A DNA stretch of 64,000 nucleotides from a virus: the IMG/VR virus record IMGVR_UViG_3300032242_001694; one strand, written 5' to 3'. Positions 10,055 through 63,606 of the stretch are shown piece by piece (the first letter of the stretch is position 1; each line of letters begins with the position of its first letter). The notes below the pieces were generated by a model. The model searched no databases. It saw nothing but the letters and a program-made list of their open reading frames with translations, and had not been told where the DNA came from. Position numbers and translations under genes: made by a program.

Positions 10055-10113
10055 TCCTGTTACCGTTGATATATCTATTATACATAGAATCTAGATAATG
10101 TCAACAACATTGT

Positions 10114-10188: not shown

Positions 10189-10218
10189 GATAGCCTCCCT
10201 TGTTTAGGCTATTTAGGA

Positions 10219-10377
10219 CTATGGTAAGATAGTGGCTATGAGCATCCCGGCAGCTGCAAACAGCAGCGACATGGTGAATATCTTCGGACCATCTGGTCCA
10301 AAGAAGTAGTAGAGTCCACCGAAGATCGGTATGATTAGTAGCCCCACCAATCCGCCGACTAATAATCTAGTCTTCAC
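10219..10377 (-). CDS. Small two-TM membrane protein
   Basis: GTG start overlapping the upstream TGA; VKTRLLVGGLVGLLIIPIFGGLYYFFG... Confidence 0.5.
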   Translation of the reverse strand: MKTRLLVGGLVGLLIIPIFGGLYYFFGPDGPKIFTMSLLFAAAGMLIATILP

Positions 10378-10796
10378 TGCGTATCCTTCACAATCTGCTT
10401 ATAGCCGGCTCCTGTAGGATGGATGCCGTCTGAACTGAGTCCCTTGATCTCTACCACGGTGTCACCCTTGGTCTTGGCGATCTTTCTAATCATCTCTCGG
10501 ATGGTCTCGATGTCGACGTTGCTGGCCTTGAGGTTACCAGCGGGAAGGATCCAGTACACCTTGGCGTCGTCGTGGATGCGACCTCGAACCTTGAGCAGCT
10601 CTTGGTTGGTCTTGACATACTGGTGGTCGTTGCTGCCTAGAGATATAATAACTTTCTTGGCATTGAGCAGGTCGGTGTTATACATAGTGTTGAACTGCCA
10701 AGTATTGATACCGCCTTTGCCAACCAATACACACTCAGGCCGAGAGTTGTGTGTTCCAACGGCGATGCTGTCGCCGATAATCATGCAATCAATCAT
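10374..10796 (-). CDS. SGNH/GDSL-like hydrolase
   Basis: GDS, G.ND and DGIHP blocks. Confidence 0.75.
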   Translation of the reverse strand: MIDCMIIGDSIAVGTHNSRPECVLVGKGGINTWQFNTMYNTDLLNAKKVIISLGSNDHQYVKTNQELLKVRGRIHDDAKVYWILPAGNLKASNVDIETIREMIRKIAKTKGDTVVEIKGLSSDGIHPTGAGYKQIVKDTQ

Positions 10797-12337: not shown

Positions 12338-14691
12338 TGTATCCCCATCTCTTCGCATTCCAACGGAAATTTTTCTAATGCCTCCGCTACAATCAATCGC
12401 AAGCGCTCGCGGAAACCTGGGATCTCCAGAATCTCCGCGATGCATACCATTTCTTCCACGTAGTCGCTAAACTTCCAATCACTGCGTTTCATGATGCTCT
12501 CCTATAATCAGATAGTACCACTAATCGCCAATTATGTCAACTAGACAGCTGGATCAGCGTTGTCCACTTTCGTGGGATCAATGATAGTGGTGTCGGTAAA
12601 GGTGGTGCCGAAGTCCTTGGTGTCCAGCTCGGCGCGCTCCTCGGGTGTGAAGTCGCCTGCCTCGCAGTAGTAACCCAACGCACCGCACTCCGCACAGGGC
12701 TTCCGCTTTACCTTGCCGGTACCCTTGCATGGCTCGCAGGAGATGGTGGTCTTGTTGACGCGACCAAACGCGTCCATATAGAATTCTGTCATGTCATGTC
12801 CTCCTATTGACCTACTACTTATCAGAGTTCTCTAAGCGTCCCAAAGTTGCGGGTACAGCCCGGAGTAGACTGCTGGCGAAGCCTCTCCGTGAGTACCTCA
12901 TGCGCCTTCTTGGGGCTGTCGAAGTAGCCCTTCTCGGTGAGCTCCTCCACCACGACTTCCTTGGTCTGTACGACCTTCATGGTCATGGAGTAGTACCTAC
13001 CCTTGAAGACGTTCTTCTTGAGTGCGTTGATGAGTGGGCCGTTCCATAGACCCTCCATGTGCGCCCTGTTCATCTCAGGTCGAAATCCTTCTTGATGGCC
13101 TTCTCGATGTCCTCACAGACAGCGACCATCCAGCGCTTGCCCTCGCCTACAGTCAGGGGGTCGTTCTTGATCTTGGTGACAATCCCGAGGCATGAGCGAG
13201 CAGTCTGCTTCTCGACGAGTGGCTGGTTGTCGAAGAGCCACCTAATATCAGCATACGCTGCCTCCATCTGTCCGGCTCGCTCCATCCAGAACTCTTTGTC
13301 TTTCTTAAGCTCTTCGATCTCACGCTGCTTGTTGAAGATCAGCTTGTCCGTGATCTGGCATCTGTCGAAGAGGCCATGGCCGCTCTCTAGGGCAGAGAGC
13401 CTATCGTCGATCGATCGAGTACGCTGGACAAAGTACTGCATCAGGTGGTCGATCCGCTTGTTTGGATCCACGCCGATACCCACCCCACCGCCGATGGGAG
13501 TAGCCCCCATGCCAGCGCCGCTTCCATAGAAACCATCCTTATTCATGTCAATACCCCCTAGTTAGTAACTTGTATATAGTAAACGCTAAAATAGCCATGA
13601 TGGCAACCCCGGCTGCGTCGCCGGAAACGTCGTGGATAGCCTTCGTCAGGTTAGGCCCGATCTCAAGCATTCTATTGCGCCTCCCTGTACATCTCGTCTA
13701 CCCACTTATCTAGCTCCGCCACCTGCTGGTCGTACTCGTCCTCTGCTATAAGGGCGTTCATGAGCTCGTGGTCCAGCTTGTCCATGGTCCGCTCGTAGAT
13801 CTTTTCAATCTCGTTCTCAGTCATCACTTCTCATCCTTACTCAGCTTCACCAAGGGCTCAAAGAAGGTGCCGACCAGCATGTAGATCAACACCGCCTGAC
13901 CGTAGCCCACCGTATGGACGCCGTCTACCGCCCCCACCAGACCGTCGTTCCAGAACCACATGATCAACACCGCGTTGATCAGAGTCGTCACTATCTGAAC
14001 AACCATCTGACCGATAACTTCAATCACTTTTTCACTCATTTGCGGTAACCTTTTCTCACTAGTGTCAGCTCCTCAGTGGGGCGACTTTCATACACATACA
14101 CGACATTAGGCGACTGGCCACGACTGACTCGGATGGCCTTGATCTCGTTCTCGAGGGCTTCGATCCGACTGTTGGCCTCTCTACGGATGGCCCATATCTC
14201 AGCGGTGATCTCTCTGATGCCTCTCATGGCTCACTCCGGGGTTACGTCAAATGTGAAGGTGGATACGTCCGTGGCCAAGATGCCGTAGTCGTAGGCGTCG
14301 TGGCGGTGCTGGAACCACCGGTCGTTGGACACCTCAAGGCACCAGCAGCCACCGAATTCAGCCACCATGTCCTTGGTGAAGTCCTCAATGGCGCCGATCT
14401 CTTCTTCTTCGAGACCATCCATCTCGCCATAGTTCAAGGCAGTGGCCCAGTGGGTAGGCAGTACATAGGTCTTGGTAATCATACGCGGAACCCCTCAAAG
14501 TAGCGGACGTCTGACTCGGTGGTGTAGGGATCCTCAGAGCAGATCCGAGCCACAATGGCGTCCTGATAGGCATCGATCTTGACGGAGAGCATATCCGCCA
14601 TCGAGTACTCACCGTGACCCATCAGGGAGGCGTAGTTGGCTTCCAGCCACTCGAGGCCCTTGCGCATTTCAACCAAAGTCAGCTTTTCCAT
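12334..14691 (-). CDS. Run of small hypothetical early genes (12334-12492, 12541-12792 with CxxC motifs, 12822-13073, 13070-13546, 13824-14039 membrane, 14036-14227, 14231-14482, 14479-14691)
   Basis: ATGA overlaps and RBSs; lies downstream of the early promoters. Confidence 0.6.
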
Positions 14692-14775
14692 AGCAATCTC
14701 CATTCCTTGACTATAATAAGATTCTATCATAGAAACGGAATTATGTCAACCCACTTTGTACAAAAAAGACGGCTA

Positions 14776-17700
14776 TTAAACCGTCTTGTAGTGCCTCTGC
14801 CACTGACTCGTAGGAACCCCATAGCCGGTACCAGCCATGTAGCTGTTCCACATGATCCGCATGACCTCTCTGGCCGTCCTAGCCTTGCTGATGTCGTACT
14901 TGAGGCGGTTCAGCCTAGTGGGCTTGGTGGCAGGATCCAGCATGGCCACCGCCCTAGAGCGCGCCTCCTCTAGTGGAAACGTCTCTAGGGCATTCAATTC
15001 CGCTACATCCATCTGTTTCATCTTGCAGTCACCAGAGAGGGCGACACGCGGTACCTGCCCAGAGCGGTCTTGACGTCGATGGACTTGACGTTGATCTTCT
15101 CGATGGTACCTATCACGCTGCCGCGAACCTTGGTCTGGATGATCACGCTCTGGCCGGTACGGAACTGCATGCCGGCGAGGCACTGGACCGTGTTATGGCG
15201 AGCCTTGATGATCTGCCCGACCGCGTTCAACTCGGCCACCGTATCGAGGGTGTCGATGAGTTTCTGGATCTGCTTCAATGTAGAGATAGCCATGGTGTTT
15301 TCCTCTGTTCCGATCATATTAAGATTCTATCATAGAAACAGAATAATGTCAACCCCAGTCCTTGAAGTTGCCGGCATCTTGGTTCTCTTTGTAGCCGTCC
15401 ATGTACTCGTCGTAGCCCTCCTCGCCCTCCTTTAGGGGGATGTAGAAGCCGTGTCCGGTACCATTTGGCCACCAGTGGGGATCTATAGGGCGACCGTAGT
15501 AGCTGTCTGCAGAACCCCTGTCGTAGGGCCCACCGTGGCGGGAACGGTCCTTCAGGTCAATCTCATCATCAAAGTCAGTCATTACGCTACATCCTTCTTG
15601 TACTGCTGCATCCGCTCGTCTTCGATGACGTACCAGCCCTTGCTCCGGGCCTTACGGTTGGCTGCGATGATCTTCTTGTTGGCCTCTACCATCTGTCTGC
15701 CGAGGTAGTCCAGCATGTCGCGGGTGACGGAGCCGGCGTCTGTCTTGACGGCCACCAGCTCGAGGGCGCGGAGTGCCATCATGTCCTTGGTGGCAGCTTC
15801 CTTCTTCTGGAAGTGGACGGCTGCCTCGAAGGACTCGACCCAGACGGTCTTACCATAGTACTGGGTGGTGGTCCAGCCGGCGAAGTGATTCATTGTGGTT
15901 GACATTTATTCTCTCCTTGTTTATATTATAACTATACGACATGCAGGGAATTATGTCAACCACTTTGAGTGAAATAAACCAAAAATTATGCGGCTTCTTG
16001 GTTTAATTTTGCGGTGACAGCCTTCATCGTGGCCAGGTTCTTGGCCTTGATCTCGGCAGCGCGCATGATCTGAGCTGCACTCTGGGGCTTCGACACCTTG
16101 GCGATTGCCTTGTTGACGCTGTCCCGAGCCTTCTGGATGGGATCCTTAGGGGCCTTAGGGGCTTTAGTAGAACCCTTCGGGGGCTTGCCGGTGGTGGCTG
16201 GAACAGCGCCTTCAACGATCTTGATGACGTTGATGAATTCAGCCATGACCTCCGCGGTGATGACGGTGGAGGCCAGAGGGATCGCGAAGATGGACCAGCC
16301 CTTGGCCCGCTTGATCAGGGTGTAGCGGAGGTTAACCTCTGCGGTGATGGCTTCGAGGTGCTTGGAGCCCGAGCCGACAATGAAGGTGCCGGACTTGACG
16401 TTGAGCTCTACCTTGCCGGTACCCTTGGTGGAGGGCTTGACGTAGAAGATGTTGTCGGAGTAGGGCTGTGGGAGGTAGCCGGCTTCAGTGACGGCGGCGG
16501 AGAAGGTGGCGAAGGTGGGGGCGAATTTCATGGTAGTCTCCTTGTTTCAATTCCTATTATAACTATACCCTGTTCGGGGAATAATGTCAACCGTATATTT
16601 TGCCAATTTCATAGGCAGTGATACGGTAGAAGATGCCGGCATCCAGATCGTCTTCAGTCAGGCGACCTTCCAACACGTTACGGGCCATCTCGGCGAGGCC
16701 CTCAGCCTCAAAGATACCCACGATAGAGTGGAAGTTTGCGGTCTGGTCGACCATCTCCACCACGTACACGTTCTTGAATCCGTCAGTCATTAGAGTACTC
16801 CGTCAGCCTTGAGGCAGATGAAACCGGCCAGCAGCATGACTGGGCCGAGGGCGATGAGGGCGAATAGGGTGTCTGGGTGCATCGATCAATCTCCGTTAGT
16901 TCCTATTATAACTATACCCCGTCCATGGATTAATGTCAACCTTTTTTTCCACGTTTTGTGAAATTATTTTCGGAACAATTCCACCCACTGGCCTGCGGGG
17001 CTGGCCTCCGACGACCTCCACGTGGAAGTCAGAACCCAGCTGGTCGGCAATCGACCGACACGCTGCCCAAGCCCTATCGTCAGATGGGAACTTGAGCTCC
17101 TGGACTATCTTGGCAGTCCTAGCCTTGAGCTGTACCACTACGACCTTGACACTCATATCTGGTAGGACTCCACGTCGCTGTCGCCACAGTACTCCATAAG
17201 GAAGTTCTCGGCCAGCACGTAGTGGTCGAACTGGATGAAGAGGGTAGGATTACCAGCAAAGCCATTGGCGATAAAGGACTCGATCCGGCCGTCGTGCTTC
17301 TGGACCATGGTCAGCACCTCGCCTATCTGGGTGTCGTAGGCCACGTCGATCTCGATGATGATCTTTTCAATGTCAGTCATTTAGAATTCCTTTCCTATTT
17401 CCTATTATAACTATACGACGTTCCCCGATTAATGTCAACAAAAAAAGAGGCCGGGAGCAAAATTAATTGCATCACCGGCCTCCAGGAGCGGCTAGGGAAA
17501 ATGACCTAAACCTAGCCGAGGAGCTTAAAGAGACTTGGTCCAGTCACGGTAATACTCATGCACGTACACGTCTACATGCTGGGCATGCTCTGGCCGGATA
17601 GTCAAGCTGGAGTATCTCCACAGCTTTCCACCACGGCGATACAGTGGAGCGTTAGGGTTGTCCTTGCCGAGCCGGCCCTTGAGAGCCACCCGAAGACGAG

Positions 17701-18483
17701 GCTGAGCCTTACCGGTCTCGAGTTCCTTGACGCGGAGCTTGGCGTTCGCGATCTTGACGTCAGCCCTGAGAGCCTCGAGCAGCTTGTTGTCTGTCACCTG
17801 AGGAACCGTAAAGCGATAAGCCGAGGTGCGAGTGCGATTGGTCATTTAGTATCTCCTGTTTTCATCCTATAGACTAATTATACCGACATTTTGAATTAAT
17901 GTCAACAATTATTTTTAGCAGTACTGGAGCTCCACCATGTCAGCCAGCAGGGCCAGAGCCTCATCGAGAGTCCGATCCTCGGCTCTGAGGTAGTGAGCCC
18001 CGTTGACGTCCAGCATGGCGATGTTCGAGCCATAGTACTGGTCGACCAGCCGAGCCGTGTACTGGCCTGTGGTAGAGCTGAACTCGATGGTCAGGCGTAC
18101 GTCTTTTTCTTCCTTAGCCTGTGCCTCGATGAAGGCTTCGATCTTGTTGAAGATGGTCATTTTCTGTTCTCCGTTTCAATTCCTATTATTAATATATCCC
18201 ATATAGGAAATAATGTCAACAATTAATTTGATAAATTTTCGATAATTTCAGATAAAATTTGTTGTGGGTCGATATTTCCGTCGCAGTAAAAAGCCCCAGC
18301 GTTTTGGTATTGGCCAGAGATTTCGACAAGTGTATATGAAGTAGTGTGCCAGACGTTTACAGTATCCCCGTCGAGCTCGGCAGGTAAGGGGAGCGAATAC
18401 GTGGGCTGAGTAGTAGTATAGGCAGTAACCAGCTCGGATGGGTTGGCGGATACTGGGAATTCGAATTCCACGAAATTTGTCAT
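14776..18483 (-). CDS. Small early genes, most with their own promoter (14776-15021, 15018-15293, 15349-15582, 15582-15905, 15986-16531, 16587-16790, 16896-17156, 17153-17380, 17525-17845, 17915-18160, 18223-18483)
   Basis: Promoter-RBS-ORF cassettes; no recognisable domains. Confidence 0.65.
17440..17482 (-). terminator. Rho-independent terminator
   Basis: GAGGCCGG...CCGGCCTC followed by a T-run. Confidence 0.8.
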
Positions 18484-45235: not shown

Positions 45236-45401
45236 TATAGTCTTCCTCCTAGAGAGATTGTTTTTCTTATTTATCTTTTTGTGATAGTCTTCATATCATA
45301 GTGATAGTCAGACATCTTCTTATGTTTAGTTTGAGGTGACTCAAGTTGTGTCTGAGTCACCGCCGTGTTACTAGCATTTCTCTTGTTAGTAACAGGCTTC
45401 T

Positions 45402-46829
45402 TCATTTATTCTTGCCCGGTTTAGCACCAGAGATAGTTGGTCTGCTGCGACCGGCTAGGCCGCCGACTTTTGAGCTACCACCGAGAGAGATCTTTGGAAG
45501 CTCTTCGTCGTGTGGCTTGCCAGCCAGCCAGCTATGAAGCGAGTCCACGTTCTTATGAATTCTTGAAGCAAATGCTTCTTTCTCAGAAGGAGTCTGGAGG
45601 TTGTCGTGGTGAGCCAAGATGCGGTGAGCAGTCATTGGATTCATCGCATGTTTCTTGCCATCCGCGAAGGTGAATGGGTGCATCCCGCGAGTTGAGATGA
45701 CCTGACGAGCCTGCTGGATTGGATGAGTGTCAGGACTGTCAGAAGCTGAGTCTTTCTTAGGACGACCGCGTGCTTCATCGATACGACTTTCTTTAACAGC
45801 CGAAGTGTTGTCGTAAGGACTTTTCATGCCATTTGCCTTGAGCATGTTGTGAGTGTTTATCTTTTTCTCAAGCTCTTTGTCATCATCACCAAAAGTCTGG
45901 TGTCTAGGAGAGCCGGCAACGTATCCATACTTTTTATTAAAGGAATCCATTCCATGCTTTTCAATATGATCGCGACGTTCTTTAGCTTCCTTGTCCCAGT
46001 CAGCTTGAGACTTGCCGTATGAGTCTTTAGGACCGGTATATCCCGGAGTGTTGTATGGATTCTTAGGATTAATGAGATGAGCGTGGCCAGACGCCATCTT
46101 TGAATCATACTCGCGCTTGTGCAGGGCATCGACCTCATCGTCTCCAACTGCTGCTCCACCTTTAGGAACTAGACCATGATCATTGTCGTGCTGCATACGA
46201 GCCCCAGCTTGGTCGCTTTTGCTCATCTTCTTATATTCATCAGCAGTTGGCGAACCTTTACTTGGACTAGATTCTTTATCATCTTCCTTATCATCTTCTT
46301 TATCGTCGTCTTCTTTATCTTCTTCATCGTCGTCGTTGGCTTCATCCATCTTCATGAAGTCACCAGCAGTCTTCTTCTTATCCATTGGAGCTGCAGTCGC
46401 AGACTTACCTGCAGCCATGGAAGCAAGCTTATTAGTACGCGCTTCGCTACCACCAGTTGTATCAATTGGCTTTAGGTTCTTTACCATGTCATCGCCTTCA
46501 GAGACAAGACCAATCATCTCTTTGATCTCTTTAAGGCTTCTACGTTCTGCTACTTCTCTGAGTGACTTCTTCATCTTCTTACCTCTATTAGGGTCTGTGT
46601 CTTTTTCAAGCTTTGCAGCCAGTGCTTTTCTAGTTGCAGGAGTTTCTCTTTCCCACTCTGGAGCGTGGGCAGGCTGGTTCAAGTTGTGAATATGCTCATC
46701 GCTGATAGTATAGTCTGCATTATCGTTCTTCACGCCAACTCCCCCGTAATCTTGATTCTGGCCCCTTACCGGAGCATATGAAGTGGTGGGTTTTAGTCCC
46801 ACCACGCTCTTCTTTTGCTTCTTAATCAT
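45402..46829 (-). CDS. Probable internal head protein
   Basis: Highly charged and low complexity; many (L/I/V/M)xE sites. Confidence 0.6.
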   Translation of the reverse strand: MIKKQKKSVVGLKPTTSYAPVRGQNQDYGGVGVKNDNADYTISDEHIHNLNQPAHAPEWERETPATRKALAAKLEKDTDPNRGKKMKKSLREVAERRSLKEIKEMIGLVSEGDDMVKNLKPIDTTGGSEARTNKLASMAAGKSATAAPMDKKKTAGDFMKMDEANDDDEEDKEDDDKEDDKEDDKESSPSKGSPTADEYKKMSKSDQAGARMQHDNDHGLVPKGGAAVGDDEVDALHKREYDSKMASGHAHLINPKNPYNTPGYTGPKDSYGKSQADWDKEAKERRDHIEKHGMDSFNKKYGYVAGSPRHQTFGDDDKELEKKINTHNMLKANGMKSPYDNTSAVKESRIDEARGRPKKDSASDSPDTHPIQQARQVISTRGMHPFTFADGKKHAMNPMTAHRILAHHDNLQTPSEKEAFASRIHKNVDSLHSWLAGKPHDEELPKISLGGSSKVGGLAGRSRPTISGAKPGKNK

Positions 46830-49800
46830 TAGCCCATATTCTGGTTAACTGAGTTGTTATTAACGTTTCTCTTCTTCATCTCAGCTGCAGCTGCCGCCAC
46901 GCGATCGCCTTGATCGGCTGGACCGCGACTAGCTGTTGCTGGAGCTGCAGCCGCCGCGCGAGCACCTGGAGCTTCAACTGAAGAACCACGACCTGCTCCC
47001 GCTGAAGCAGCTGGGCGAGGGGCAGGAGTAGGTGCAGGTGCTGCTCTTGCTGCAGTAGCTGCTGGTTTTGCAGCTGGGGCTTGAGATGGAGGTCCAGACA
47101 TCGGTCCAAGAGTTCCAGCTTTCTTGGCAGCGTCGTACTGTCTTAGAGCACCAAGTGGTGACTGATCATTGTAGTCAACTGGCGCTTCTGTTTTACCGCC
47201 ACCAAATGTGCGTTCCATCCAGTTAGGCTTACGTTCACCGGCCGCAGCTGGAGCTGGAGCTGCTGGCTTAGCAGCCTGTGGAGCTGCTGGCTTTGGAGCC
47301 TGTGAAGCTGCTGCGCGAGCACCTGGAGCTTCAACTGAAGAACCGCGACCTGCTCCTGCTGAAGCAGCATTCTGAGCTGATTGGGCGTTTGAAGCTGCTT
47401 GGCGATCTCCTTGATCGGCTGGTCCTTTTGCTGGAGCTGGGCTAGACTGTGTCTGTGCTGCGCGTTGACCTGGTTGTTCACCATATTGACCACGGCCAGC
47501 GCCTGCTACTTCTGGAGCTGCTGGCTTAGCAGCCTGTGGTGTTGGTTTTGGTTCTTCAGAATCTTGCGCATCTTTCTCAATGTCTTCATTCTCAAGTTTC
47601 TTCTTACCTTCCATTACTGCTTCTAAGTAAGCAAGTTCTTCTCTAGAAAATGTTACTTCTTCATTTTTTAGCTTGTCAACTGCCATCTTTGATCTGCTCT
47701 TAGCTTTTTTAATAAGACTATTCTGAGACTTATCAGCTATGCCGCCACTTCCGCGATCAGATGCAGCCGCTGCGTTCTGAACAGTCATCGCATCAGCTGC
47801 AGCTTGGCGATCTCCTTGATCAGCCGGTCCTTTTGCTGGACTAGCCGATTTAGCAGGTGATGTGCGCTCATCATCGCCCATCTCAGCTTGACGATTAGAT
47901 CTGCTGTCTTTTTTCTCGTCATTAACATTAGGGCCAGAAGTAGTAATCTCAACCCCACCGCTCTTTGCACCTTTACCAATTTCAATAGGATCTTTATCAC
48001 CTGTAGATACGCGTGTAATAGTTGTACCATCTTTATTAGTGTTAGTTTTCACGCTGGAACTGGCACTAGCACTGGATTTGCCAACAACAGTTCTACCTTT
48101 ACCTATAGTATCACTCGACGAATCATTGTTATCTTTGTCTTGAGATTTTAGATAGCGGTCTATTGATTGTTTACCAACGTCTTTATAACGATTTGGGTCA
48201 CTACTCCAAGAACTGCTACTAGAAGATGATGTCATCTTAGGAGCTGGACCATCTGATGAATCAAGAGTCATGTCTTTAATCTTAGAAGGATTAGTCATCT
48301 TAGGAGCTGGACCGTCAGGCGAATCATTTTCATCAGCTTCCATCTCAAGCTTCTTTGCTCTCTTAGCTTCAATGAGATCTCTGATGCGATAAGCTACAGA
48401 TTCGTTCTTGATCTTTGATGAGACTACGTCACGGCGATTCTTGAGATACTTGTCGCTCTTGTTGACCTTGCCGTCGTTGTTGACGTCATCGTCTTCTTTA
48501 CCAACTGGGTCAAGAGCTTCATCCATCTCTTTCTTGCTGCGAAGCTTCTTGAAGTCATCAGCATCAATCTTGCCATTGTGGTTAGCGTCAATCTTGCCTT
48601 GGTTACCCTTAAGCTTCTCCAACATGATCGCTTTAGCTGCTTCGACCAGAGATGAAGAAACGCCTAATGATTTATCCGATTTCATGAACGGATTCTGGTT
48701 TGGCATCTTAATCATGTTATGTCCTTCTGTTTGGGTTTTAGACTTTTTATTCTTATCATTTTCGTCTTCTGCGTCTTTACCAGTATCTACCGATTTTCCT
48801 GGACCCGGACCATATATTGGACGATTACCTGGGATGAATAGACCTCTGTTGCTAAAAGAAGCATGTCCACTGCTCTGGCCAAATCCAGATCCGGCTGGAC
48901 GAGTTGTATCTACGTCTGGAGCTGGATGACGTCTTACAGAAGGCTCTGTTTTTGGCGAAGCTGATGTGTCGGCGTGAGGTGTAGTTACTGGAGGAGGCAA
49001 CACTGGAGCTGGTGGTGTAATAGCTGCAGTCTGTGCAGCAGTCTGTGGGACAGATTGAGCTAATGCTTGTGTCTGTGGGACAGATTGCGCTTGAGTAATA
49101 TCAGCAGGCTTTGTAACTGTGCCTGCCGCGCCAAGTGGATCTGCAATTGGCTTTGCTTTAGGAGTCGCTTTAGCAAGTGCTCTAGCTCTAGCAGCTTCTC
49201 TTGTCTTCTCCATGTCAACGTCTGCAGCTTTCTTAACTTCCGCGGCAGCGTCGGCTGTATCTATCTTTGCTGGTTCTTTTACTTCTGCTGGTTTTGAGAT
49301 ATTCTTAAATGCTTCTCCTCTTTCAGCTTCACGTCCAGCATTTGCGGCAACATGATGCTGCTGCATCGCGGCATGGTGAGCTTCTTTTTCAGAGTCTGAC
49401 ATAGTCGTTCCAGTATGACTACCTGAAAGTCTATCGTCTTTACTACCAGCTGCAGTAATTTTAGTAGGTTCTGTATCAGCTTTTGTCATAGCCGACAAAC
49501 CTGCGCCTCTAGTGGCTTCTCTTCCAATTTCAGATTTTGTATCGTCTTCTTTTTTCTTATCTAAGTACTGTCTTCTAGCAGCTTCAGCTGGAGTTTCTGA
49601 TCTAGACTTAAGAGCGTCAGCTGCTAGCTTTCCAGCACCAATTGCAGCGCCGCCGCCTAATAAACCTCCAATAATTGGAGCAACAAAAGGTAAAGCCATA
49701 GCAAATTCATTAAGGCTATCTTCAATAGCTTGGACGCGATCAATCTCAGCTTGACTAAAGAGCTCATAATCTTCTTTGACGCTATTACCAGCGCCTTTCT

Positions 49801-50161
49801 GACCAATCATCTTGTTCTGCTTGTTTCTCTCGTGAACGCCTTTTTTATCTTCGTCGCTTTCGCTCTCGATCTTATCATCAGTCTTTGGCTTTAGATCAAC
49901 TCTAGTAACACCACCTTTAAGTTGCTTAGCGTCGTCTAGATTTTGGTTACCCATTTCTTGCTCGGGAGGAGCGACCTGCTTGGTAGCCATGTCCTCAACT
50001 ACTTTAGTCAAGATCTCGCCCTGCTTGCCAAGCTTTGACTTCTCGCTCGTGGCTTTCTCGTCGTCTGGACGACCGACGTTACGCATGTTGCTGCGAATCT
50101 TGGTGTTCTTATCGAACATGACCTCGAGGATAGAGTGATGCAGTGATCTATACTTTTCCAT
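46829..50161 (-). CDS. Large probable internal head protein (1110 aa)
   Basis: DxNxxGKIDxxD and D.NNDGK...SD.YL.NRR motifs; internal repeats GPADQGDR x3 and [18 protein letters not shown] x2. Confidence 0.65.
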
Positions 50162-50162
50162 T

Positions 50163-50600
50163 TTACGCCTTAGTTACTGACCTAAGCATCCAATCATGCT
50201 TATAGTGTCTATCGATTCTATCCTGTAAGAAGTTGGCTAGACCAACTGCGTTCTCTTTCTCAGCAAGCTTTTGAGTCTCTTTGAGGATCACGATGATCTT
50301 CATGTTGTCTTCTTTAAGCTTTGAAGCCATAGAAAGAGCTGATGGAATATTTATCTCATCTTTAACTACAGAGTCTTCCATGTAGCGAACAAAAGAACCT
50401 GGAGCGTACGCACCCAGAGTCCTAATCTCCTCAGCAATAGGGTCTACCGCTGAGAAGTACTCTTGATACAAGTCACCAAAGAAGTCGTGGAACATTGGAA
50501 ATGTTGGTCCCTCAACGTTCCAGTGGAAGTTGTGTGCCTTGAGGTAGATGGCGAAGGTACTCGCCAACACAACCTTCATCTTTGATACTAGCTCTTCCAT
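50163..50600 (-). CDS. dps: Dps / mini-ferritin
   Basis: K.HNFHWNV.G..F...H, D.IAE.IR.LG, H.K..WML. Confidence 0.92.
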
Positions 50601-50908
50601 TAGTGGCCCTTTGCCTTTTCTGCAGCAGCTTTAGCAGCAGATGCTGCCTTGTCGCCTGCACCTTCCATTGCCTTCTCTACTGACGAAGTCACAGTCGCAG
50701 CAATCCCAGCGTATGGAGTGTTGGCAGTAGCCGAAGCCACTGACTTTTCAAGTACTTGCTCAGCTGCTTTAACACCTGCCTTGACGACAGTGTCTGCATT
50801 CGCGATAACAGCATCCGCTGCCGCGTTCTTAATTACTTCTGCCTGCTCTTTAGACTCTTTACGGAAAGATCTCAAGAAGCTCTTTGCAAATTCTGGTAGC
50901 ATAATCAT
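50600..50908 (-). CDS. Ala-rich hypothetical protein
   Basis: ORF with overlapping neighbours. Confidence 0.6.
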   Translation of the reverse strand: MIMLPEFAKSFLRSFRKESKEQAEVIKNAAADAVIANADTVVKAGVKAAEQVLEKSVASATANTPYAGIAATVTSSVEKAMEGAGDKAASAAKAAAEKAKGH

Positions 50909-51525
50909 TCTCCCTTATAATGTTTCATATTACCCGATGGATCCACGTGAAATGCGTTGAAGTGGACGTCAGGATGGTCTCTTCTCATATTTAGGAAAGC
51001 ATCTAGGTTCGGCTTACTGTCGTCGTACATGCTTACTTTCTTGTATCCGTGCTTCTTAATGTGATCAGAAATAACACTTGCTTTCTTCTCAGCCGGCGAA
51101 GCGCTTCCAGCTATATTACCCACGCGGTGAACGTGGATGCTATTCATGTCCATTCCCTGCCTGCGGAACGTGTCAAGGAACTTATCCTTGTTGTCAAAGT
51201 CAGCTCGAGCAGTCAAGAGATGGACCTTGCTTCCTGGATGCCTGCCGATGTTCTGCTGGATCCTATTGACCCTGTTAATCATGCTTGGAATCGGCTTAGA
51301 CTCTTTGTCAAACTTCTCTGCGTTCTTAAACTCTGAGTAGTCATATGTGTGTCCAGCTGGAAGCCTGTGGGTATTGTACTCGCTGTTTGATAGTCTCTTA
51401 ACAACTTTACCTGAAGGATCCTTGACACCAATCTGAGCAGTGGTGTGCATGAGGGTGTCGTCGATGTCAACGTAGTGAGCGTGACCTCTTCTCTGCTCTT
51501 CAAGGAATCTTCTAAAGCTAATCAT
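50905..51525 (-). CDS. HAD-superfamily phosphatase with IP-like N-terminus
   Basis: DIDDTL, LTAR, K, YDDS..N; starts MISFRRFLEE. Confidence 0.78.
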   Translation of the reverse strand: MISFRRFLEEQRRGHAHYVDIDDTLMHTTAQIGVKDPSGKVVKRLSNSEYNTHRLPAGHTYDYSEFKNAEKFDKESKPIPSMINRVNRIQQNIGRHPGSKVHLLTARADFDNKDKFLDTFRRQGMDMNSIHVHRVGNIAGSASPAEKKASVISDHIKKHGYKKVSMYDDSKPNLDAFLNMRRDHPDVHFNAFHVDPSGNMKHYKGE

Positions 51526-52322
51526 TGGTCCCTCAAGATCTTAACGTGGTGTATTCTATAAGTGGACTTAGTCTTTGGATCTGCATGCTCTTCATAACCT
51601 AGATGCTGTAAAGTCTGGCCTCTCTTGACAATAGACTCATGCTCGTCGCCAAAGTCACTCTCTCCGCTGACATGAGATACTGGATCGCCAGGCTCAACGT
51701 GAATATGCATGATGTGTCTGGTTTCGCCTGGCTTGATATAACCTTCTGCGTAGCCATGCGCCAGAGTCTTGTCGTGTGTTGCCGATATATAAGCGGGCGA
51801 GTGGAGCTTTCCCTCTTCATCGGTATGATCCTGTGGATTAAAAGATAGACCGGAATATAAGCTCATAGGCTTCTTGATCTTATTCTTATCAATCGCGCTG
51901 TCCAATGCCTTATACATTGGTCTTAGATTCTTTTCGTGTGTCTCAGACTTAAAGCCATGAATAAGCGGTCTATTCATGTCCTTGCTGTGATTATCATCGC
52001 CAGTGTAGTGATCTATAATGTCTCTGTGATTATCAGAGAATTTATTATCTTTTTGAAGTTTTGCGCTGATAGCAGCTGGATCTTTACCAAGGTGCTCGTT
52101 GTCGTTTTTCTTCTTCCAGTCAGAGATCATTCCTTGATCGCCGATGTCTTCTTTAAGCTTCTTTAAAAATTTAGAAACACTGGTACCGAGCTGCTTAAAG
52201 TGAATAGGTTCAGGTATGACGCCACTCTTAGGCTCAATCACTCTAGGAGTTGCCTGCCTAAAGTGAATAGCCACTGGAGTAGAACCCATCTTATCCTTTA
52301 AGTATTCACCAAACTTCTTCAT
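51522..52322 (-). CDS. ADP-ribosyltransferase-like protein (Alt/Mod/VIP2 fold)
   Basis: YT.....N..L, LD..I, LYSG, YISAT, EHE..V.RG. Confidence 0.7.
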   Translation of the reverse strand: MKKFGEYLKDKMGSTPVAIHFRQATPRVIEPKSGVIPEPIHFKQLGTSVSKFLKKLKEDIGDQGMISDWKKKNDNEHLGKDPAAISAKLQKDNKFSDNHRDIIDHYTGDDNHSKDMNRPLIHGFKSETHEKNLRPMYKALDSAIDKNKIKKPMSLYSGLSFNPQDHTDEEGKLHSPAYISATHDKTLAHGYAEGYIKPGETRHIMHIHVEPGDPVSHVSGESDFGDEHESIVKRGQTLQHLGYEEHADPKTKSTYRIHHVKILRDQ

Positions 52323-52567
52323 TACTTCTTTCTTAGATCTTCTTGATTGCTTCTAAGATAGTCCGCGCAGGTTGACATGTAGTCAGCAGCGATTGTAATC
52401 TTTGCCTGAACCCACTCGGGCAAGTTTGTGTCTGGCTCGAGCATCGAGTTAACCTGCTGTGAGTTAAACACTATGGATCTAATCTGCGACATAGTCATGT
52501 CACCTTCATAGTCATACTCGCCCTTGTCTTTTGCTTCTTGTAGATTGAATCTCTTAAACGATTTCAT
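52322..52567 (-). CDS. Small probable internal head protein
   Basis: MKSFKRFNLQE; LPEWVQ.KIT.A.DY. Confidence 0.7.
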   Translation of the reverse strand: MKSFKRFNLQEAKDKGEYDYEGDMTMSQIRSIVFNSQQVNSMLEPDTNLPEWVQAKITIAADYMSTCADYLRSNQEDLRKK

Positions 52568-53406
52568 TAGCAGTTCCACTTTCTTAGAGCTTTGTTGATA
52601 CGTGAATCTGGATCATTTGCAGTCTTAGCCGACGTAAGTCTCTTTTTCATCCCACCCATGCGAGCGCAGAATGACTTGCGGCGATTGGCAGCTTTGCTAC
52701 CCTTCTTTAACTTTGATGGCTCAGTGGTCACTGGGGCCTTCAGGTGGCCGCCCGACTCTCTATTGTAGTGGTCTCTGCCTTTTTGAGTCAAGCCGCCAGT
52801 CTCGCTCTTATATCCCTTAGAGTCTTCTTCCATTCCACACTCACAGTCGTCGCAAGAACACTTCTTCTCATTAATAACTTTCTTAATGGTGCTGAGAGTC
52901 TTAGATCTGCCTTGACCTGGAGTGTTATCTTTAAGAATACCGGTTAGCGAGTCGGTACCGACGAAGCGCGATGATGGATCATTTGGATCCTTAGACTGTG
53001 GCTCGCCGGTGGTGTAAGCTTCTGATTGAGAAGCCTTGAGGTCTTTAGCTGTAGGGCGACCTTTTTCGCCAGGCTTACGCATATGCTCGCCTGAGCCATG
53101 CTTGATACGCTCGCGCTTAGCGTGAATATTGTCCCAGAGGCCGCGTTTTTCTGATAAATCGTGATCCATGTGTGCTGCTAACCCTCCAGCGATAAATGAA
53201 TTAACTCTATTATAGGCTGTCTGCTCAGAAAAGTCAACGAGATAACCGCGAACGTACACTTCTCTAAGTGTGTCGAACGGTACACCTGACTGCTGAGACT
53301 TCTTGAATAGGGAGATTACTTGTTTTTCTGACAGTGCCACGGCGGCCGCTGCGTGCTCTACAAAATCTAGCTGAGGACTAGAAAGGAGACTCTTCTCTTT
53401 TGGCAT
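52567..53406 (-). CDS. DUF6321-like domain protein
   Basis: GLW.NIHAKR.R and RRKSFCARM.G...SRINKALRKWNC. Confidence 0.7.
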   Translation of the reverse strand: MPKEKSLLSSPQLDFVEHAAAAVALSEKQVISLFKKSQQSGVPFDTLREVYVRGYLVDFSEQTAYNRVNSFIAGGLAAHMDHDLSEKRGLWDNIHAKRERIKHGSGEHMRKPGEKGRPTAKDLKASQSEAYTTGEPQSKDPNDPSSRFVGTDSLTGILKDNTPGQGRSKTLSTIKKVINEKKCSCDDCECGMEEDSKGYKSETGGLTQKGRDHYNRESGGHLKAPVTTEPSKLKKGSKAANRRKSFCARMGGMKKRLTSAKTANDPDSRINKALRKWNC

Positions 53407-53468
53407 TGGTGTTTCCCTTAGGCTTAACCAAGAACAAGCAGGACTGCCGTGGCTTTCTGCAACAAAAC

Positions 53469-53476
53469 TATTTATA
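53469..53476 (-). promoter_or_regulatory. T4-type late promoter
   Basis: TATAAATA. Confidence 0.8.
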
Positions 53477-54091
53477 TTATTTCTTCTTTTGCATGCCTGC
53501 TGCTATGTCGTTGTAGAGCTCCTCGCTGTGCTGAGGATGGAGAGATCCGTATCTCTTCTGGAACTCTTCTTTATTGCCAGTCGCGACTAAGTTTCTAATC
53601 TTAGTAGCTGACTCGGCGTCGCCGTCTCTCTCGCCAGCTGAGACTACCCTGATGCCATTCTTGTAGTTAAATGGAACGTTACCTTTCTTATCAGGCTGGC
53701 CATTATATCTATTGAATAGGTCTTGGTACTCTTTTACGCGATCATCGCCTGCCACTACAGTCAAGTGGTCGTGACCTTCTCTATTTAGCCTAGCCGCGTG
53801 ATGAATCAGAGTTGGGTGAGCGCTGTCTGCCATTGTAATGTTAGTATTAGGAAAGATACGCTTTGCATGCTTAAGCTTCTGAGCTGGAGTGAGCGGGTTC
53901 TTCTCGTCTCCAGTGGTGTGACTCAATACGACTTCGTGTCTAGCACCCATCTGATTGGCTAAGCTCTTTACAGTATTGACCAACTTGCCGTGACCGGCTT
54001 CAGTCGGTGGCTGCATTCTACCAAACGCCATAACTGCAGGATTCTCTCCGTAGCCGGTATCTTCTTTTATGAATGATAGGAATCTTTTCAT
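53477..54091 (-). CDS. HIGH-superfamily cytidyl/adenylyltransferase with IP-like N-terminus
   Basis: FGRMQPPT..GH.KL, KNPL, V.G.DR, SAT..R; starts MKRFLSFIKE. Confidence 0.8.
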   Translation of the reverse strand: MKRFLSFIKEDTGYGENPAVMAFGRMQPPTEAGHGKLVNTVKSLANQMGARHEVVLSHTTGDEKNPLTPAQKLKHAKRIFPNTNITMADSAHPTLIHHAARLNREGHDHLTVVAGDDRVKEYQDLFNRYNGQPDKKGNVPFNYKNGIRVVSAGERDGDAESATKIRNLVATGNKEEFQKRYGSLHPQHSEELYNDIAAGMQKKK

Positions 54092-55359
54092 TTCTTTGCC
54101 TTTGACATGAAGCCGTAACCGGCGAGATTGTAACCAGCAAAACCGCCTGGTTTATCTTCAGTTGGTGGGCTTTGATCTACCAACTTCTGCATGTTACCTT
54201 GATCGTCGGTGTGAACGTAGCCTTCGTGACCGGTAGCGATTCCACCGATACTCGTTCCCGCTGTCTTACCTTTATCCATTACTCTAACGAGAACGTTCTT
54301 AGCATTAGCCAAGTGCTTGTCGAGATCCATTCCTCTTTGGAAGTGCTCGCGATTCTGATGAACGTACTGAAGCTGGTCGTTAAGAGCAGCTGATCTCTTA
54401 TCTTTAGCAGCCTGTGTCTTAACCTTGTCCATATCTTTCTGAGCAGCGCCGGTCAAGTGCTGGATGTAACCATCTACCGATGCCTCTTCAGGCTTAGTCT
54501 TTGGATCCCTGGTTGCATTTCTTCTAATGATGCTATTCATATAAGTTTCAAGAGGAATGGCATGACCACCGATTGCATCTAGAGCTTCAGGCTTCATCGA
54601 TGCATACGTCTTTCTAGCCAGCTCTTTATGGGCGTGAAACTCTCTTTGATCTTCTGGTGTGAAGTGATCTGGATTTGGCTTGAAGTCTGTGCTCATCATA
54701 TCGACATCAGGGTGTGACTTGAAGTCAGAGTCTCTAACGTCTGGTGTAGCAACCATGCTTGCCAGATCATTTCCCTTATAGCGGGTATGCATGGCAAGAC
54801 CGATCTTTGCAGCGAGAGCTTTCTTACCCTCAGCCGAGTTCCTATCATGAGAATACTCAACGGTGTTTGGCTGGTACTTTACTTGACCATGCTCAACTTG
54901 AATATCTTTCTTACCGGAGTGAGTGAAGTCTCCTTGCCAAACTTGATCAGGAAACCTGCCTCCGACGCTCTTGCGATCCGGAAGAACCTTATGAACGTTA
55001 TCTAGTAAGTCATGAAGCTTTGCTGCTAATCCAGGTGCATGGCCGTGATTGCGGTCAATGTCTTCATGTGTAAAGTTTAACTTGGGATCTTTATTAAAGA
55101 CTGACTTACTGCCGATAAAACGCTCGCCGGTTTCAGGATGATAGCCAGCCACAACCGCTGGCGCGCCGTCAACTTTAGTCTTAAAATGATGTCCTGGAGT
55201 CTCTTGTCCGGTAAGATGTTTAGCAGTCGCTTCAAGTGAGTTGACTGATCTCGCCACGCCGTCGTGACCGCCCGTAATGTGAAGTCTATTGACATGCTGT
55301 AAGTGCTTAAGCTTGTCTTCGTTTACTTCTTCTAATAAGTACTGATAAAAGCTTTTCAT
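54088..55359 (-). CDS. DUF6267-like protein with ATP-dependent ligase motifs
   Basis: KVDGAP, QGD, EGYV, KLVD; starts MKSFYQYLLEE. Confidence 0.7.
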   Translation of the reverse strand: MKSFYQYLLEEVNEDKLKHLQHVNRLHITGGHDGVARSVNSLEATAKHLTGQETPGHHFKTKVDGAPAVVAGYHPETGERFIGSKSVFNKDPKLNFTHEDIDRNHGHAPGLAAKLHDLLDNVHKVLPDRKSVGGRFPDQVWQGDFTHSGKKDIQVEHGQVKYQPNTVEYSHDRNSAEGKKALAAKIGLAMHTRYKGNDLASMVATPDVRDSDFKSHPDVDMMSTDFKPNPDHFTPEDQREFHAHKELARKTYASMKPEALDAIGGHAIPLETYMNSIIRRNATRDPKTKPEEASVDGYIQHLTGAAQKDMDKVKTQAAKDKRSAALNDQLQYVHQNREHFQRGMDLDKHLANAKNVLVRVMDKGKTAGTSIGGIATGHEGYVHTDDQGNMQKLVDQSPPTEDKPGGFAGYNLAGYGFMSKAKK

Positions 55360-56681
55360 TGTGACTTCTCGCTAGGTCCGTAAAAATCATTTCCACCATG
55401 TTCTCCATGGCCTTCGCTGGTAACTGGCTGTTTAACTTTTTTTGCTTTAGGTGCTGCCGGAGCCGGAGGCATATTAACTTCCGGAGGAGGCGCAGCTTTC
55501 TTTGCAGCGAGTCTCTGTTGTTTATCTAGTTCTCTCTGTTGCTTTCTTGCGATAGCATCAGCTTCCAGTTTCTTAGCATGATTAAATAAATCTTTTTTGA
55601 CACCTTGTGAAGATGTGACTGGAATACTGTTTCTATACTGATGATTACCTTTTGAGATAATCATGATGCGTCCGCCGGATCCTTTTTGATCCGTATCTCT
55701 ATCTCTTCTGACAACTACTTTAGATGGAATCATTTCAGAGCAATCGTCATTTGTATTTACATGCTGGTGAGTAAGAGGATGGAGATCCATGGTAGGAATA
55801 CCTCTATGATTCCTGCCTTCTGGATCTGAGACTGCAGCCGGCATGAAATGCATCGATCCTTGAATAACGGAGTGCACGTTATTGACTCCATAATTACTGC
55901 CGTGATCTTTACCATACATGGCTCTGTGAACAATCTTTCTTTGCTCGGGATCGCTGTCGTCTAAGTCGTGATGGTATATCAAGCCTTCTGGTACCGTATC
56001 GTATCCTTGATTATTTTTATGCTTTCTAAACATGCCAGCAATTTTATCTAGTACCGGATGATCCTTGCCATTGACTTCGTGATCTTGAAGACCTCCGAGC
56101 TGTTGGAAACCACCTGCAGCTTTCAATGAATGCCATGATACCGGATTGCCATGTTCATCATGTAAGAACATGTCAGCTTTTGGCTTTGCACCTCTGTGCC
56201 CATACTGATTTGCAATTTCTTTAGTAACACGCTGTGCACCGGCAACATTTACAAACTTACCACCACCAATGTGGAGTCTCATATAAGGAGCGTTGCCTTT
56301 TGCTTTATTGATTGCGTCTTGAATATTGTTCATCTGATCGGCTTCTGCCGCTTCTTGGTCTTTACCAACTCTTCCGCCGGTCGGTTTATAGAACTTGCTC
56401 ATTGGTATGTGGTGTTCATTACCAGCATCGTCATGATGAATACCGTGCCAGTCTCCATTAATATTCTTAACACCGCTGAGTCTTACTACGTCACCGGCTT
56501 GTAAACCAGATTTTTTATGATCTGCCGAAAGAGTCCAGTCATTTCCATGTTTATCCATAGCTTCTGGACCATAGTAAACTTTATGATCGTAAGTACCTCT
56601 TTTACTATCAACTTTAGAAGATAGTGTACCGCGAGATGCTATGGGACCTCTCTCAATTAAATATTCTCTGAAGCTATACAT
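55356..56681 (-). CDS. Probable internal head protein with PD-(D/E)XK-like core
   Basis: PKAD...SLK; starts MYSFREYLIE. Confidence 0.6.
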   Translation of the reverse strand: MYSFREYLIERGPIASRGTLSSKVDSKRGTYDHKVYYGPEAMDKHGNDWTLSADHKKSGLQAGDVVRLSGVKNINGDWHGIHHDDAGNEHHIPMSKFYKPTGGRVGKDQEAAEADQMNNIQDAINKAKGNAPYMRLHIGGGKFVNVAGAQRVTKEIANQYGHRGAKPKADMFLHDEHGNPVSWHSLKAAGGFQQLGGLQDHEVNGKDHPVLDKIAGMFRKHKNNQGYDTVPEGLIYHHDLDDSDPEQRKIVHRAMYGKDHGSNYGVNNVHSVIQGSMHFMPAAVSDPEGRNHRGIPTMDLHPLTHQHVNTNDDCSEMIPSKVVVRRDRDTDQKGSGGRIMIISKGNHQYRNSIPVTSSQGVKKDLFNHAKKLEADAIARKQQRELDKQQRLAAKKAAPPPEVNMPPAPAAPKAKKVKQPVTSEGHGEHGGNDFYGPSEKSQ

Positions 56682-56708
56682 CGATACCTCTTATAACAGG
56701 GTTTTTTA

Positions 56709-56716
56709 TATTTATA
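56709..56716 (-). promoter_or_regulatory. T4-type late promoter heading the internal-protein block
   Basis: TATAAATA. Confidence 0.82.
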
Positions 56717-56721
56717 AAATA

Positions 56722-56751
56722 GAAAAAGGGACGAGCCCATAGACTCGTCCC
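56722..56751 (-). terminator. Rho-independent terminator
   Basis: GGGACGAG-TCTATGGG-CTCGTCCC-TTTTT. Confidence 0.85.
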
Positions 56752-56864
56752 CCTCAGTTCTAGATTGGTATGGTCGAGTGGAACCCCACCATGCGTCTCG
56801 ACTCTTCCTGACTTTTACATCTTGCCTCTTGCTCTGCAGTAGCAATACATACCATTTCTAGAAT
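56722..56864 (-). ncRNA. Candidate structured small RNA
   Basis: Own TATAAATA (56866-56873) and own terminator; long closing helix TTCTAGA.ATGGTATG / CATACCAA.TCTAGAA. Confidence 0.7.
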
Positions 56865-56889
56865 CTATTTATATGATACTGATGATTTT

Positions 56890-63111: not shown

Positions 63112-63606
63112 TTACTCCTTTGATGACTTAGTTTTTGCTGAAGCCATCTCAGTAGTTTCTTCAATGTCAATCTTCTTAGGCTTCTTATGTTCGGGAATCA
63201 TGTGTTCCAGCCAGATCTTTAGCATCCCGTTGACCAGCTGGGCATTCTTGATCTCAACGTGATCATTCAACGCGAACATGCGACTGAATGGACGCTCGGC
63301 AATACCCTTGTAGATTGCCTCAGTCTTTTCGTCTGAGTTATTAGACACGCTTCCCTTGATAACAAGCTTGTTATCTTCAAGAGTCATCTCAATGTCTTGC
63401 TTGCCAAAGCCGGCAACAGCCATCTCGATAACGTAGACATTGTCGTCAGTCTTCTTTAGATTAAATGGAGGGTAGGCACTCATTGCCGTGTTACCCATCT
63501 GCTCAAAAGCTTTACTAATTTGAGCTGCCATCTTGTCGTGGCCGATCATGTAGCGATCGAGCTTAGCGAATTCTGGGAAGTAGTGATTGATATTCCAGTT
63601 TGTCAT
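63112..63606 (-). CDS. hsp20: Small heat-shock protein (Hsp20/IbpA-like)
   Basis: YPPFN, IE.AVAGF, GIA.R.F.R.F.L, NG.L.I.L...IPE. Confidence 0.93.
   Translation of the reverse strand: MTNWNINHYFPEFAKLDRYMIGHDKMAAQISKAFEQMGNTAMSAYPPFNLKKTDDNVYVIEMAVAGFGKQDIEMTLEDNKLVIKGSVSNNSDEKTEAIYKGIAERPFSRMFALNDHVEIKNAQLVNGMLKIWLEHMIPEHKKPKKIDIEETTEMASAKTKSSKE

Follow-up and report, generated by a model that had tools for sequence, protein, structure and literature searches.

A probable T4-type capsid targeting tag on a set of enzymes encoded by an uncultured Kyanoviridae-like phage

Results

Six proteins of one gene block share an N-terminal decapeptide

The DNA analysed here is a stretch of 64,000 nucleotides (the window) of IMG/VR virus record IMGVR_UViG_3300032242_001694, a fragment of an uncultured T4-like phage in which nearly every gene lies on the minus strand. 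Six of its proteins begin with a common N-terminal decapeptide, hereafter the tag, which is probably (at a probability of about 0.75) a capsid targeting and protease-processing sequence of the T4 type that loads a set of enzymes into the phage head. Because all six start with the ten-residue label by which T4 loads proteins into its head, packaging of these otherwise unrelated proteins into the virion, and their delivery together with the DNA, is very probable; the decapeptide is best explained as the equivalent, in Kyanoviridae-type phages, of the capsid targeting sequence (CTS) of T4.

All six tagged proteins are encoded within seven consecutive genes of the minus strand (50905-56681). These genes, named g1 to g7 in the order of their transcription, and the gene that follows them (g8) are the following:

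55356-56681, minus strand: g1, 441 amino acids (aa); tag MYSFREYLIE (56652-56681)
54088-55359, minus strand: g2, 423 aa, DUF6267; tag MKSFYQYLLE(E) (55330-55359), then an acidic linker and an RNA-ligase-like nucleotidyltransferase domain
53477-54091, minus strand: g3, 204 aa, cytidylyltransferase-like; tag MKRFLSFIKE (54062-54091), then a 7-residue linker, the first strand and the GRMQPPTEAGHG motif
52567-53406, minus strand: g4, 279 aa, with DUF6321 at its C-terminus; no canonical tag
52322-52567, minus strand: g5, 81 aa, acidic; tag variant MKSFKRFNLQE (52535-52567)
51522-52322, minus strand: g6, 266 aa, ADP-ribosyltransferase (ART) fold, PF03496; tag MKKFGEYLKD (52293-52322), with Asp10
50905-51525, minus strand: g7, 206 aa, putative HAD-type phosphatase; tag MISFRRFLEE (51496-51525), then a linker and DIDDT
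50600-50908, minus strand: g8, 102 aa, Ala-rich; degenerate tag-like KSFLRSFRKE at residues 9-18, displaced 8 residues inward (AKSFLRSFRKE)

When the 96 open reading frames (ORFs) of the window were scanned at their starts with the strict pattern M-x-x-[FY]-x-x-[FY]-[LIV]-x-[ED], five of them (g1, g2, g3, g6 and g7) matched, compared to 0.014 expected from composition; g5 is the sixth tagged protein, with a form of the tag one residue longer. No further ATG-started open frame of at least 60 codons with the strict pattern was found in the six frames of the window. The six N-termini that an earlier, sequence-only reading of this DNA had quoted were all present on the minus strand, in g1, g2, g3, g5, g6 and g7. 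That reading had described a late operon of enzymes sharing the N-terminus, which held for these six genes but not for g4, inside the operon, nor for g8, where only the degenerate copy was seen. It had also named an equal frequency of the motif on early and replication proteins as a finding that would speak against it, but gp41, UvsX, gp43, the primase and NrdA were all without the tag, as were the sugar-pathway genes of the window.

Apart from the tag, the six proteins have little in common. They are not paralogues, with differing Pfam, PHROG and fold assignments, and blastp among the proteins of the block without their first 12 residues gave no match at E<=0.01, as expected from the earlier claim that they are mutually unrelated. 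Within the tag, Phe at position 4 and Phe or Tyr at position 7 are present in all six, and a motif of the type recognised by the prohead protease follows, as LIE, LLE, IKE and LEE in g1, g2, g3 and g7, as LQE shifted by one residue in g5 and as LKD in g6.

The tag keeps the positions that are critical in T4

The CTS of T4 reads MKTYQEFIAE (PMC8442874), and the first 10 residues of internal protein (IP) III suffice for packaging (PMC9026906). Genetic analysis of this sequence assigned targeting mainly to residues 4 and 7 and processing to residues 8 and 10, an Asp at position 10 stopping cleavage while leaving targeting intact (PMC9026906). The T4 protease gp21 cleaves after L/I-x-E. The tags described here keep the four positions so defined (4, 7, 8 and 10), and as a positive control a generic DNA pattern retrieved ipII and ipIII in the T4 genome. 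The interpretation as a T4-type capsid targeting sequence was thus strongly supported by comparison, namely by the T4 positions, by the conservation of the peptide across the family, by its N-terminal location and by the presence of the g3 orthologue of phage S-SM1 in virions.

As in IPII and IPIII of T4 (and similarly in IPI), a ten-residue N-terminal peptide stands on otherwise unrelated proteins, in which positions 4 and 7 are aromatic, position 8 is Leu or Ile and position 10 is Glu, the last two forming the L/I-x-E protease motif. Late expression, suggested here by promoter boxes, and T4-type head morphogenesis in the phage that carries the genes would be further features in common. The two systems differ in phage family (Kyanoviridae-like here, Straboviridae for T4), in the preference for Phe over Tyr at position 4 and in the arrangement of the tagged genes, which here form one operon between gp41 and gp61, unlike the ip loci of T4. 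The cargo also differs, consisting here of enzymes of 200-440 aa, whereas the T4 IPs are small (8-20 kDa) and are described as basic (PMC9026906); most of the mature cargo described here is basic as well (isoelectric points of 8-9.6).

Gene 61.1 of T4 (54 aa, hypothetical; NC_000866 18966-19130, L092:267-431 in our locus set, minus strand) begins with MKTFKEFIKE, which agrees fully with the tag consensus given below, and lies between genes 41 and 61, where the tagged block of the window is also situated.

The tag is conserved as a peptide across the family

Relatives were sampled in two ways. The first sample consisted of the 120 best homologues of DUF6267, retrieved by homology alone (36-98% identity) and therefore independent of the tag pattern. 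The tag was found at the start of 78 of them and within a few residues of the start in 22 more, so that 100 of the 120 carry it, and most of the remaining homologues show it after an evidently over-called start. The second sample comprised 85 IMG/VR loci and the window (1.08 Mb, with 1677 ORF starts on the gene strand), in which 111 ORF starts carried the tag, whereas permuting the arrangement of the same residue classes gave 0.58 on average. The 123 hits were distributed over 12 unrelated clusters, including DUF6267, small DUF6321 proteins, HAD phosphatases, the g1 family and several unknown proteins.

The 96 non-redundant tags of these relatives gave the consensus M-[KLI]-[STK]-F-x-x-[FY]-[LI]-x-E, followed by Ala, Glu or Ser and an acidic linker. 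Position 4 is Phe in 92 tags and Tyr in 4, position 7 is Phe in 67 and Tyr in 29, and position 8 is Leu in 65 and Ile in 31; Val, permitted at position 8 by the pattern, occurs in none of the 96, and positions 2, 3, 5, 6 and 9 are variable. As Glu10 was demanded by the search pattern, its count of 96/96 is not an observation. When the core F-x-x-[FY]-[LI]-x-E was searched without the Met anchor, 112 cases, compared to 0.11 expected, had its first Phe within ORF positions 3-6, and 8 had it within positions 7-40.

At the conserved positions, synonymous codons are used freely (TTT in 63 and TTC in 35 cases for Phe at position 4, and all six codons for Leu). The six tags of the window agree at 55% of their bases and at 41% of third positions; no longer stretch of identity was seen, and the upstream regions differ. 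Such codon variation and low base identity indicate that the constraint acts on the peptide and not on an RNA element or a recombination cassette.

The tag forms a module separable from its cargo. In the AlphaFold models, residues 1-16 of g1 and 1-14 of g2 have a predicted local distance difference test (pLDDT) score below 50 and precede well-folded domains, and in g3 and g7 a short linker separates the tag from the first catalytic strand. The DUF6267 orthologues of phages S-PM2, S-SM1 and Syn9 are without the tag. The cytidylyltransferase is tagged when it stands alone, and where it is fused behind DUF6267 (proteins of 600-720 aa) there is a single tag at the N-terminus. Scans of whole records found from 1 to about 6 genes with the tag in each genome, most of them within or close to the block, with the phage of the window and C48C1, a member of the Kyanoviridae, at the high end.

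Fusions of DUF6267 with the cytidylyltransferase were frequent (loci L042, L045, L069, L071, L072 and L086, in proteins such as P0111), and the fact that the two are often one polypeptide argues that both enzymes act together. In C48C1, the annotated start of the cytidyltransferase CDS0089 (L008:9001-9064; OQ984149, about 63451-63514) looks too late, as the open frame upstream of it encodes (V)IKNFSQYLLEE; since this tag lacks an ATG, a GTG or ATT start is likely.

Virion and protease evidence from relatives

Mass spectrometry of purified S-SM1 virions detected T4-GC190, annotated as a cytidylyltransferase, with 25 counts, and also GC1453, GC1454, GC1455, GC425 and GC426 (Sullivan et al., 2010; PMC3037559, Suppl. 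Table 8). In the S-SM1 record, T4-GC190, GC1453, GC1454, GC1455, GC425 and GC426 are SSM1_190, 188, 191, 192, 195 and 197, and the detected proteins listed there span most of the gp41-gp61 block that is syntenic with the block of the window. SSM1_190 is the orthologue of g3 (tblastn; blastp 7e-21); it begins with MKKFSAFLNE and occupies the same place between gp41 and gp61, but has some 70 more residues than g3 between tag and catalytic domain. SSM1_192 begins with MLSFKELQEKK. The DUF6267 protein of S-SM1 (GC71), which has no tag, does not appear in the virion table (PMC3037559, Suppl. Table 8). In the published account, as far as consulted, T4-GC190 figures as a structural protein of unknown role, and no targeting tag is mentioned there (PMC3037559).

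The tag-carrying relatives also encode a gp21-type protease and a gp22-type scaffold, as seen in C48C1 and in all 16 cyanophages. C48C1 has at least five tagged genes and annotated protease, scaffold and capsid genes. In its major capsid protein, GGFLTE/T aligns with GSFLTE/AEIGG of T4 gp23 at residue 65, which we take to be the maturation cleavage site of gp23. From this alignment, the specificity of the prohead protease looks conserved in C48C1.

Organisation of the operon

The replication proteins of the window are nearest to those of cyanomyoviruses and their relatives, with gp41 being 58-62% identical to that of Synechococcus and Prochlorococcus phages and of Stenotrophomonas phage DLP_6. 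The block starts downstream of gp43, UvsX and gp41, and its genes are tightly coupled on the minus strand, in the order g1, g2, g3, a second TATAAATA box, g4, g5, g6, g7, g8, a Dps-like protein, a 1110-aa protein and a 475-aa protein from the promoter on. The features around the genes g1 to g8 are the following:

56724-56755, minus strand: intrinsic terminator hairpin (14 bp, 7 G-C pairs, T-run), which ends the upstream unit of gp41 and a small gene
56709-56716, minus strand: T4-type late-promoter box TATAAATA, directly after the hairpin and 27 nt before the ATG of g1
53469-53476, minus strand: second TATAAATA box, 62 nt upstream of g4
50163-50600, minus strand: Dps/ferritin-like protein of the same operon
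45402-50161, minus strand: 1110-aa low-complexity protein and 475-aa protein at the end of the operon
45268-45274: ATAAATA box after the end of the operon, preceding a structural-type MAQWG protein

The sequence that the sequence-only reading had placed at 56709, in front of the operon, was confirmed as a TATAAATA box. There are 7 copies of TATAAATA in the window, compared to 1.9 expected, and we propose that the operon is transcribed late, as these T4-type boxes suggest.

The Dps/ferritin-like protein has no tag here or in 28 orthologues. The N-terminus of the 1110-aa protein is a longer tag-like variant ending in I-x-E that resembles MENKFKSLESVIRE of locus L057. A relationship of this protein to the S-SM1 virion protein SSM1_191 was considered and rejected, as blastp gave no significant match and only a visually similar DPVG-x-EDDD-V-x-NDG stretch was seen. 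The 475-aa protein is untagged in the window, but its orthologues in loci L037 and L039 begin with MLTFRGW[FI]TE.

At the DNA level, the sole match of the block to isolated phages was about 110 bp of the C-terminus of DUF6321 in marine cyanophages (70-83%). Between the small gene after gp41 and the promoter of the operon, a separate TATAAATA at 56866-56873 is followed by about 105 nt and then by a strong terminator (56722-56873, minus strand), a unit that might represent either a small RNA made late or an ORF of 31 codons. Elsewhere in the window, the 10 kb from 8000 to 18000 contain many small minus-strand ORFs and have a G+C content of about 54%, compared to about 44% in the rest.

Predicted functions of the cargo

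The sequence-only reading had assigned the tagged proteins to a nuclease-like protein, a ligase fold, a HIGH nucleotidyltransferase, an ADP-ribosyltransferase and a HAD phosphatase. In g1, the tag is followed by an SH3-like domain (residues about 40-105), by a domain like that of restriction endonucleases (about 107-346), by a long helix and, lastly, by a disordered tail rich in Ala, Pro and Lys. Comparison of its model (pLDDT 77.1) with solved structures by VIA pointed to the monomeric restriction enzymes MspI (Z 7.4, 172 residues aligned), HhaI (Z 6.8) and HinP1I (Z 5.4). D170 and S185-L-K187 are invariant among 14 sequences, resembling what we take to be the D-Xn-(N/Q)-x-K motif of MspI and HinP1I. 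These data are suggestive of a restriction-endonuclease-like nuclease, so that the nuclease label is plausible with moderate strength.

The ligase-like assignment of g2 was supported. K62, D64 and G65 of its motif I (KxDG) are invariant in 19 diverse homologues, and with its model (pLDDT 90.7) the top 14 rows of VIA were all RNA or DNA ligases, with Z values at the grey level of the tool: REL1 (Z 8.0, root-mean-square deviation 4.1, 203 residues aligned), Naegleria RNA ligase (7.8), Trl1 (7.3), Rnl2 (7.2) and Rnl1 (6.8). An RNA-ligase-like nucleotidyltransferase is thus a good prediction for g2, with moderate Z values. Foldseek searches with the g1 and g2 models gave no match at E<=0.001 (best E for g2, 0.027), and sequence-only searches of the PDB with g1, g2, g3, g6 and g7 returned nothing usable.

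For g3, a cytidylyltransferase-like protein is a good prediction, as it matches phrog_3041 (cytidyltransferase) with an E value of 2.7e-40; the HIGH motif of the earlier label has to be replaced by T-x-x-G-H. The motif of g3, PPTEAGHG, has one residue more than the PPTIGHG of its orthologues. The sole find of the NCBIfam and relaxed Pfam scans was TIGR00125 in g3, with 21.1 bits, below the cut-off of 27.7.

Upstream of g5, the untagged g4 has PQLDFVE near its N-terminus, of which PQL-x-x-V-E is conserved in orthologues; g4 and its orthologues present the N-terminal pattern M(V)KKF-x-x-F-[DE]-x-QL or PQL-x-x-V-E, which may be a second kind of propeptide. Other phages encode small DUF6321 proteins that do bear the canonical tag. 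For g5, the start taken is the ATG that overlaps the stop codon of g4 (TAATG), a longer listed GTG start being less likely.

In g6, the ART fold of the earlier assignment stood, with 30.6 bits against the Pfam cut-off of 23.4 for ADPrib_exo_Tox (E 2.6e-7) and with the SAT and EHE motifs kept, but the canonical Arg is replaced by Ser. We take the aromatic-X-Gly stretch, LYSG in g6, to be the site of the catalytic Arg of R-S-E ARTs, a site placed by pattern and not by alignment to a solved ART; at the first match of this pattern, 113 of 150 family representatives have Ser, in which the g6 family differs from R-S-E ARTs. This replacement makes the activity of g6 uncertain. As its tag has Asp at position 10, g6 may be targeted and yet remain uncut there. 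The family of g6 is large, phage-encoded and uncharacterised, with 391 cluster representatives at E<=0.001; its members (P0132-P0281) have an IP-x-PIHFK motif right after the tag, a Lys-rich linker, and [TVL]YSG where canonical enzymes have Y-R-G.

For g7, the HAD phosphatase label is plausible and of moderate strength. It is based on motif I, DIDDT at residues 20-24 (conserved among the orthologues compared as D[IVM]D[DE]T), and on a match to phrog_415 (E 1.8e-5), labelled 'polynucleotide kinase' in PHROG; the Pfam model Acid_phosphat_B gave 19.4 bits, below its cut-off of 27. No relatives of g8 were found in the fetched loci.

Discussion

By analogy with T4, loading would proceed as follows. 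The operon would be transcribed late from its TATAAATA boxes, alongside the head genes. The tag would form a short amphipathic helix, whose aromatic residues 4 and 7 would dock the nascent protein on a gp22-type scaffolding core during prohead assembly. A gp21-type prohead protease recognising L/I-x-E would then cut after Glu10, freeing the mature enzyme inside the head, and this mostly basic enzyme would stay with the DNA and exit with it at infection. The set so delivered would include the restriction-endonuclease-like g1, the RNA-ligase-like g2, the cytidylyltransferase-like g3, the small acidic g5, the ART-fold protein g6 and the HAD protein g7. From docking on the core to ejection, action before phage transcription and a role in host takeover or counter-defence, these steps are inferred; it is speculation that RNA repair or counter-defence involves the ligase-like protein, the nucleotidyltransferase and the phosphatase.

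Several observations weigh against packaging by the tag. The virion evidence comes from one phage: gp184 of Syn9 is tagged (MKKFSAFLSE), but T4-GC190 was undetected in a shallower survey of Syn9 virions, and it was undetected also in a shallower survey of S-PM2 virions. The tag is not the sole route into the particle, because the untagged SSM1_188 and SSM1_191 were also present in S-SM1 virions. Position 10 is not Glu in g6 and in about half of its tagged relatives. In the search without the Met anchor, the core occurs 26 times at deeper internal positions, compared to 7.6 expected over all residues, and in C48C1 a relaxed pattern also matches a helicase and a PTOX-like protein, probably by chance. 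Finally, the head module (gp20-gp23) lies outside the window.

Among the alternatives, the tag could lead its bearers into the virion or into an assembly intermediate without their being ejected, as scaffold-associated factors lost at maturation or as neck or tail components. Neighbouring genes of the block do encode true structural proteins, of the MAQWG family, whose representative S-SM1_195 (GC425) was detected in virions, and the T4 core proteins gp22 and gp67 are likewise processed, with most of their fragments leaving the head (PMC9026906). We nevertheless consider this alternative unlikely, because the cargo proteins are folded enzymes in which catalytic motifs are conserved, because the 25 peptide counts listed for S-SM1_190 place it in mature purified particles, and because CTS fusions in T4 remain in the head and reach the host (PMC9026906).

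Little credence is given also to the possibility that the shared N-terminus is a general amphipathic helix, serving membrane association, oligomerisation, docking of an Hsp20 chaperone or regulated degradation, and is unrelated to packaging. A hydrophobic pattern of the i, i+3, i+4 type is generic for such helices, and the models do put a short helix at residues 4-10, but the tag agrees with the T4 CTS at each critical position, including the L/I-x-E protease motif, it is confined to a putative late operon beside structural genes, a tagged orthologue is listed among the S-SM1 virion proteins, and the tagged proteins have the folds of soluble enzymes and show no other membrane features. A likeness at the RNA level (a translation-initiation or RegA-type repressor element) or through recent DNA duplication or cassette recombination is highly improbable, being largely refuted by the codon analysis, even though the internal-protein loci of T-even phages are known for shuffling about a conserved CTS and a regA-like gene is present in relatives.

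A T4-type targeting and processing tag on injected enzymes can be compared with two other known systems. Alt of T4 is a head-packaged and injected ADP-ribosyltransferase processed by gp21 (PMC9026906), and it is like g6 in having the fold of an NAD-utilising enzyme, g6 being only a candidate packaged protein. Unlike g6, Alt begins with MELITE and has no CTS, and homology between the two was rejected, as no sequence relation was detectable (blastp E 4.9). In the giant phages phiKZ, 201phi2-1 and SPN3US, several ejection or inner-body proteins, including enzymes, are packaged into the head and matured by a T4-related protease that cuts after Glu; that system differs in its S/A-x-E cleavage motif, in its long propeptides and in its lineage, and no short common N-terminal address tag has been described for it.

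The proposed mechanism is known from T4, and as far as the searchable literature goes, what is new is the phage family (Kyanoviridae-like) and the enzyme cargo; in this literature nothing was found that links a capsid targeting sequence to cyanophages, and nothing that names DUF6267. The CTS has so far been discussed for T-even phages, and here the same label, its critical positions unchanged, is found on enzymes of a distant T4-like branch that includes abundant marine cyanophages. The tag offers a reason for the presence of a 'cytidylyltransferase' and of neighbouring hypothetical proteins in purified cyanophage particles, and it makes the inside of the head, with delivery at infection, a likely location for the widespread families of DUF6267 and of tagged small DUF6321 proteins, whose function is unknown. 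In this way, the non-DNA content injected by these phages becomes cataloguable from sequence and testable in cultured S-SM1 or Syn9.

More tentatively, and with considerable doubt on our part, the tag might be a portable address label across Kyanoviridae-like phages (cyanophages, pelagiphage relatives and freshwater uncultured phages) that marks a conserved, pre-loaded set of enzymes. If so, sequence alone would suffice to read which proteins thousands of uncultured T4-like phages inject. The conserved set would consist of the RNA-ligase-like enzyme, the cytidylyltransferase, often fused to it, and the HAD phosphatase, the nuclease-like and ART-like proteins being lineage-specific additions, and it would act at the entry of the DNA, for instance by repairing RNA cut by host anticodon nucleases or by attacking host nucleic acids before phage gene expression.

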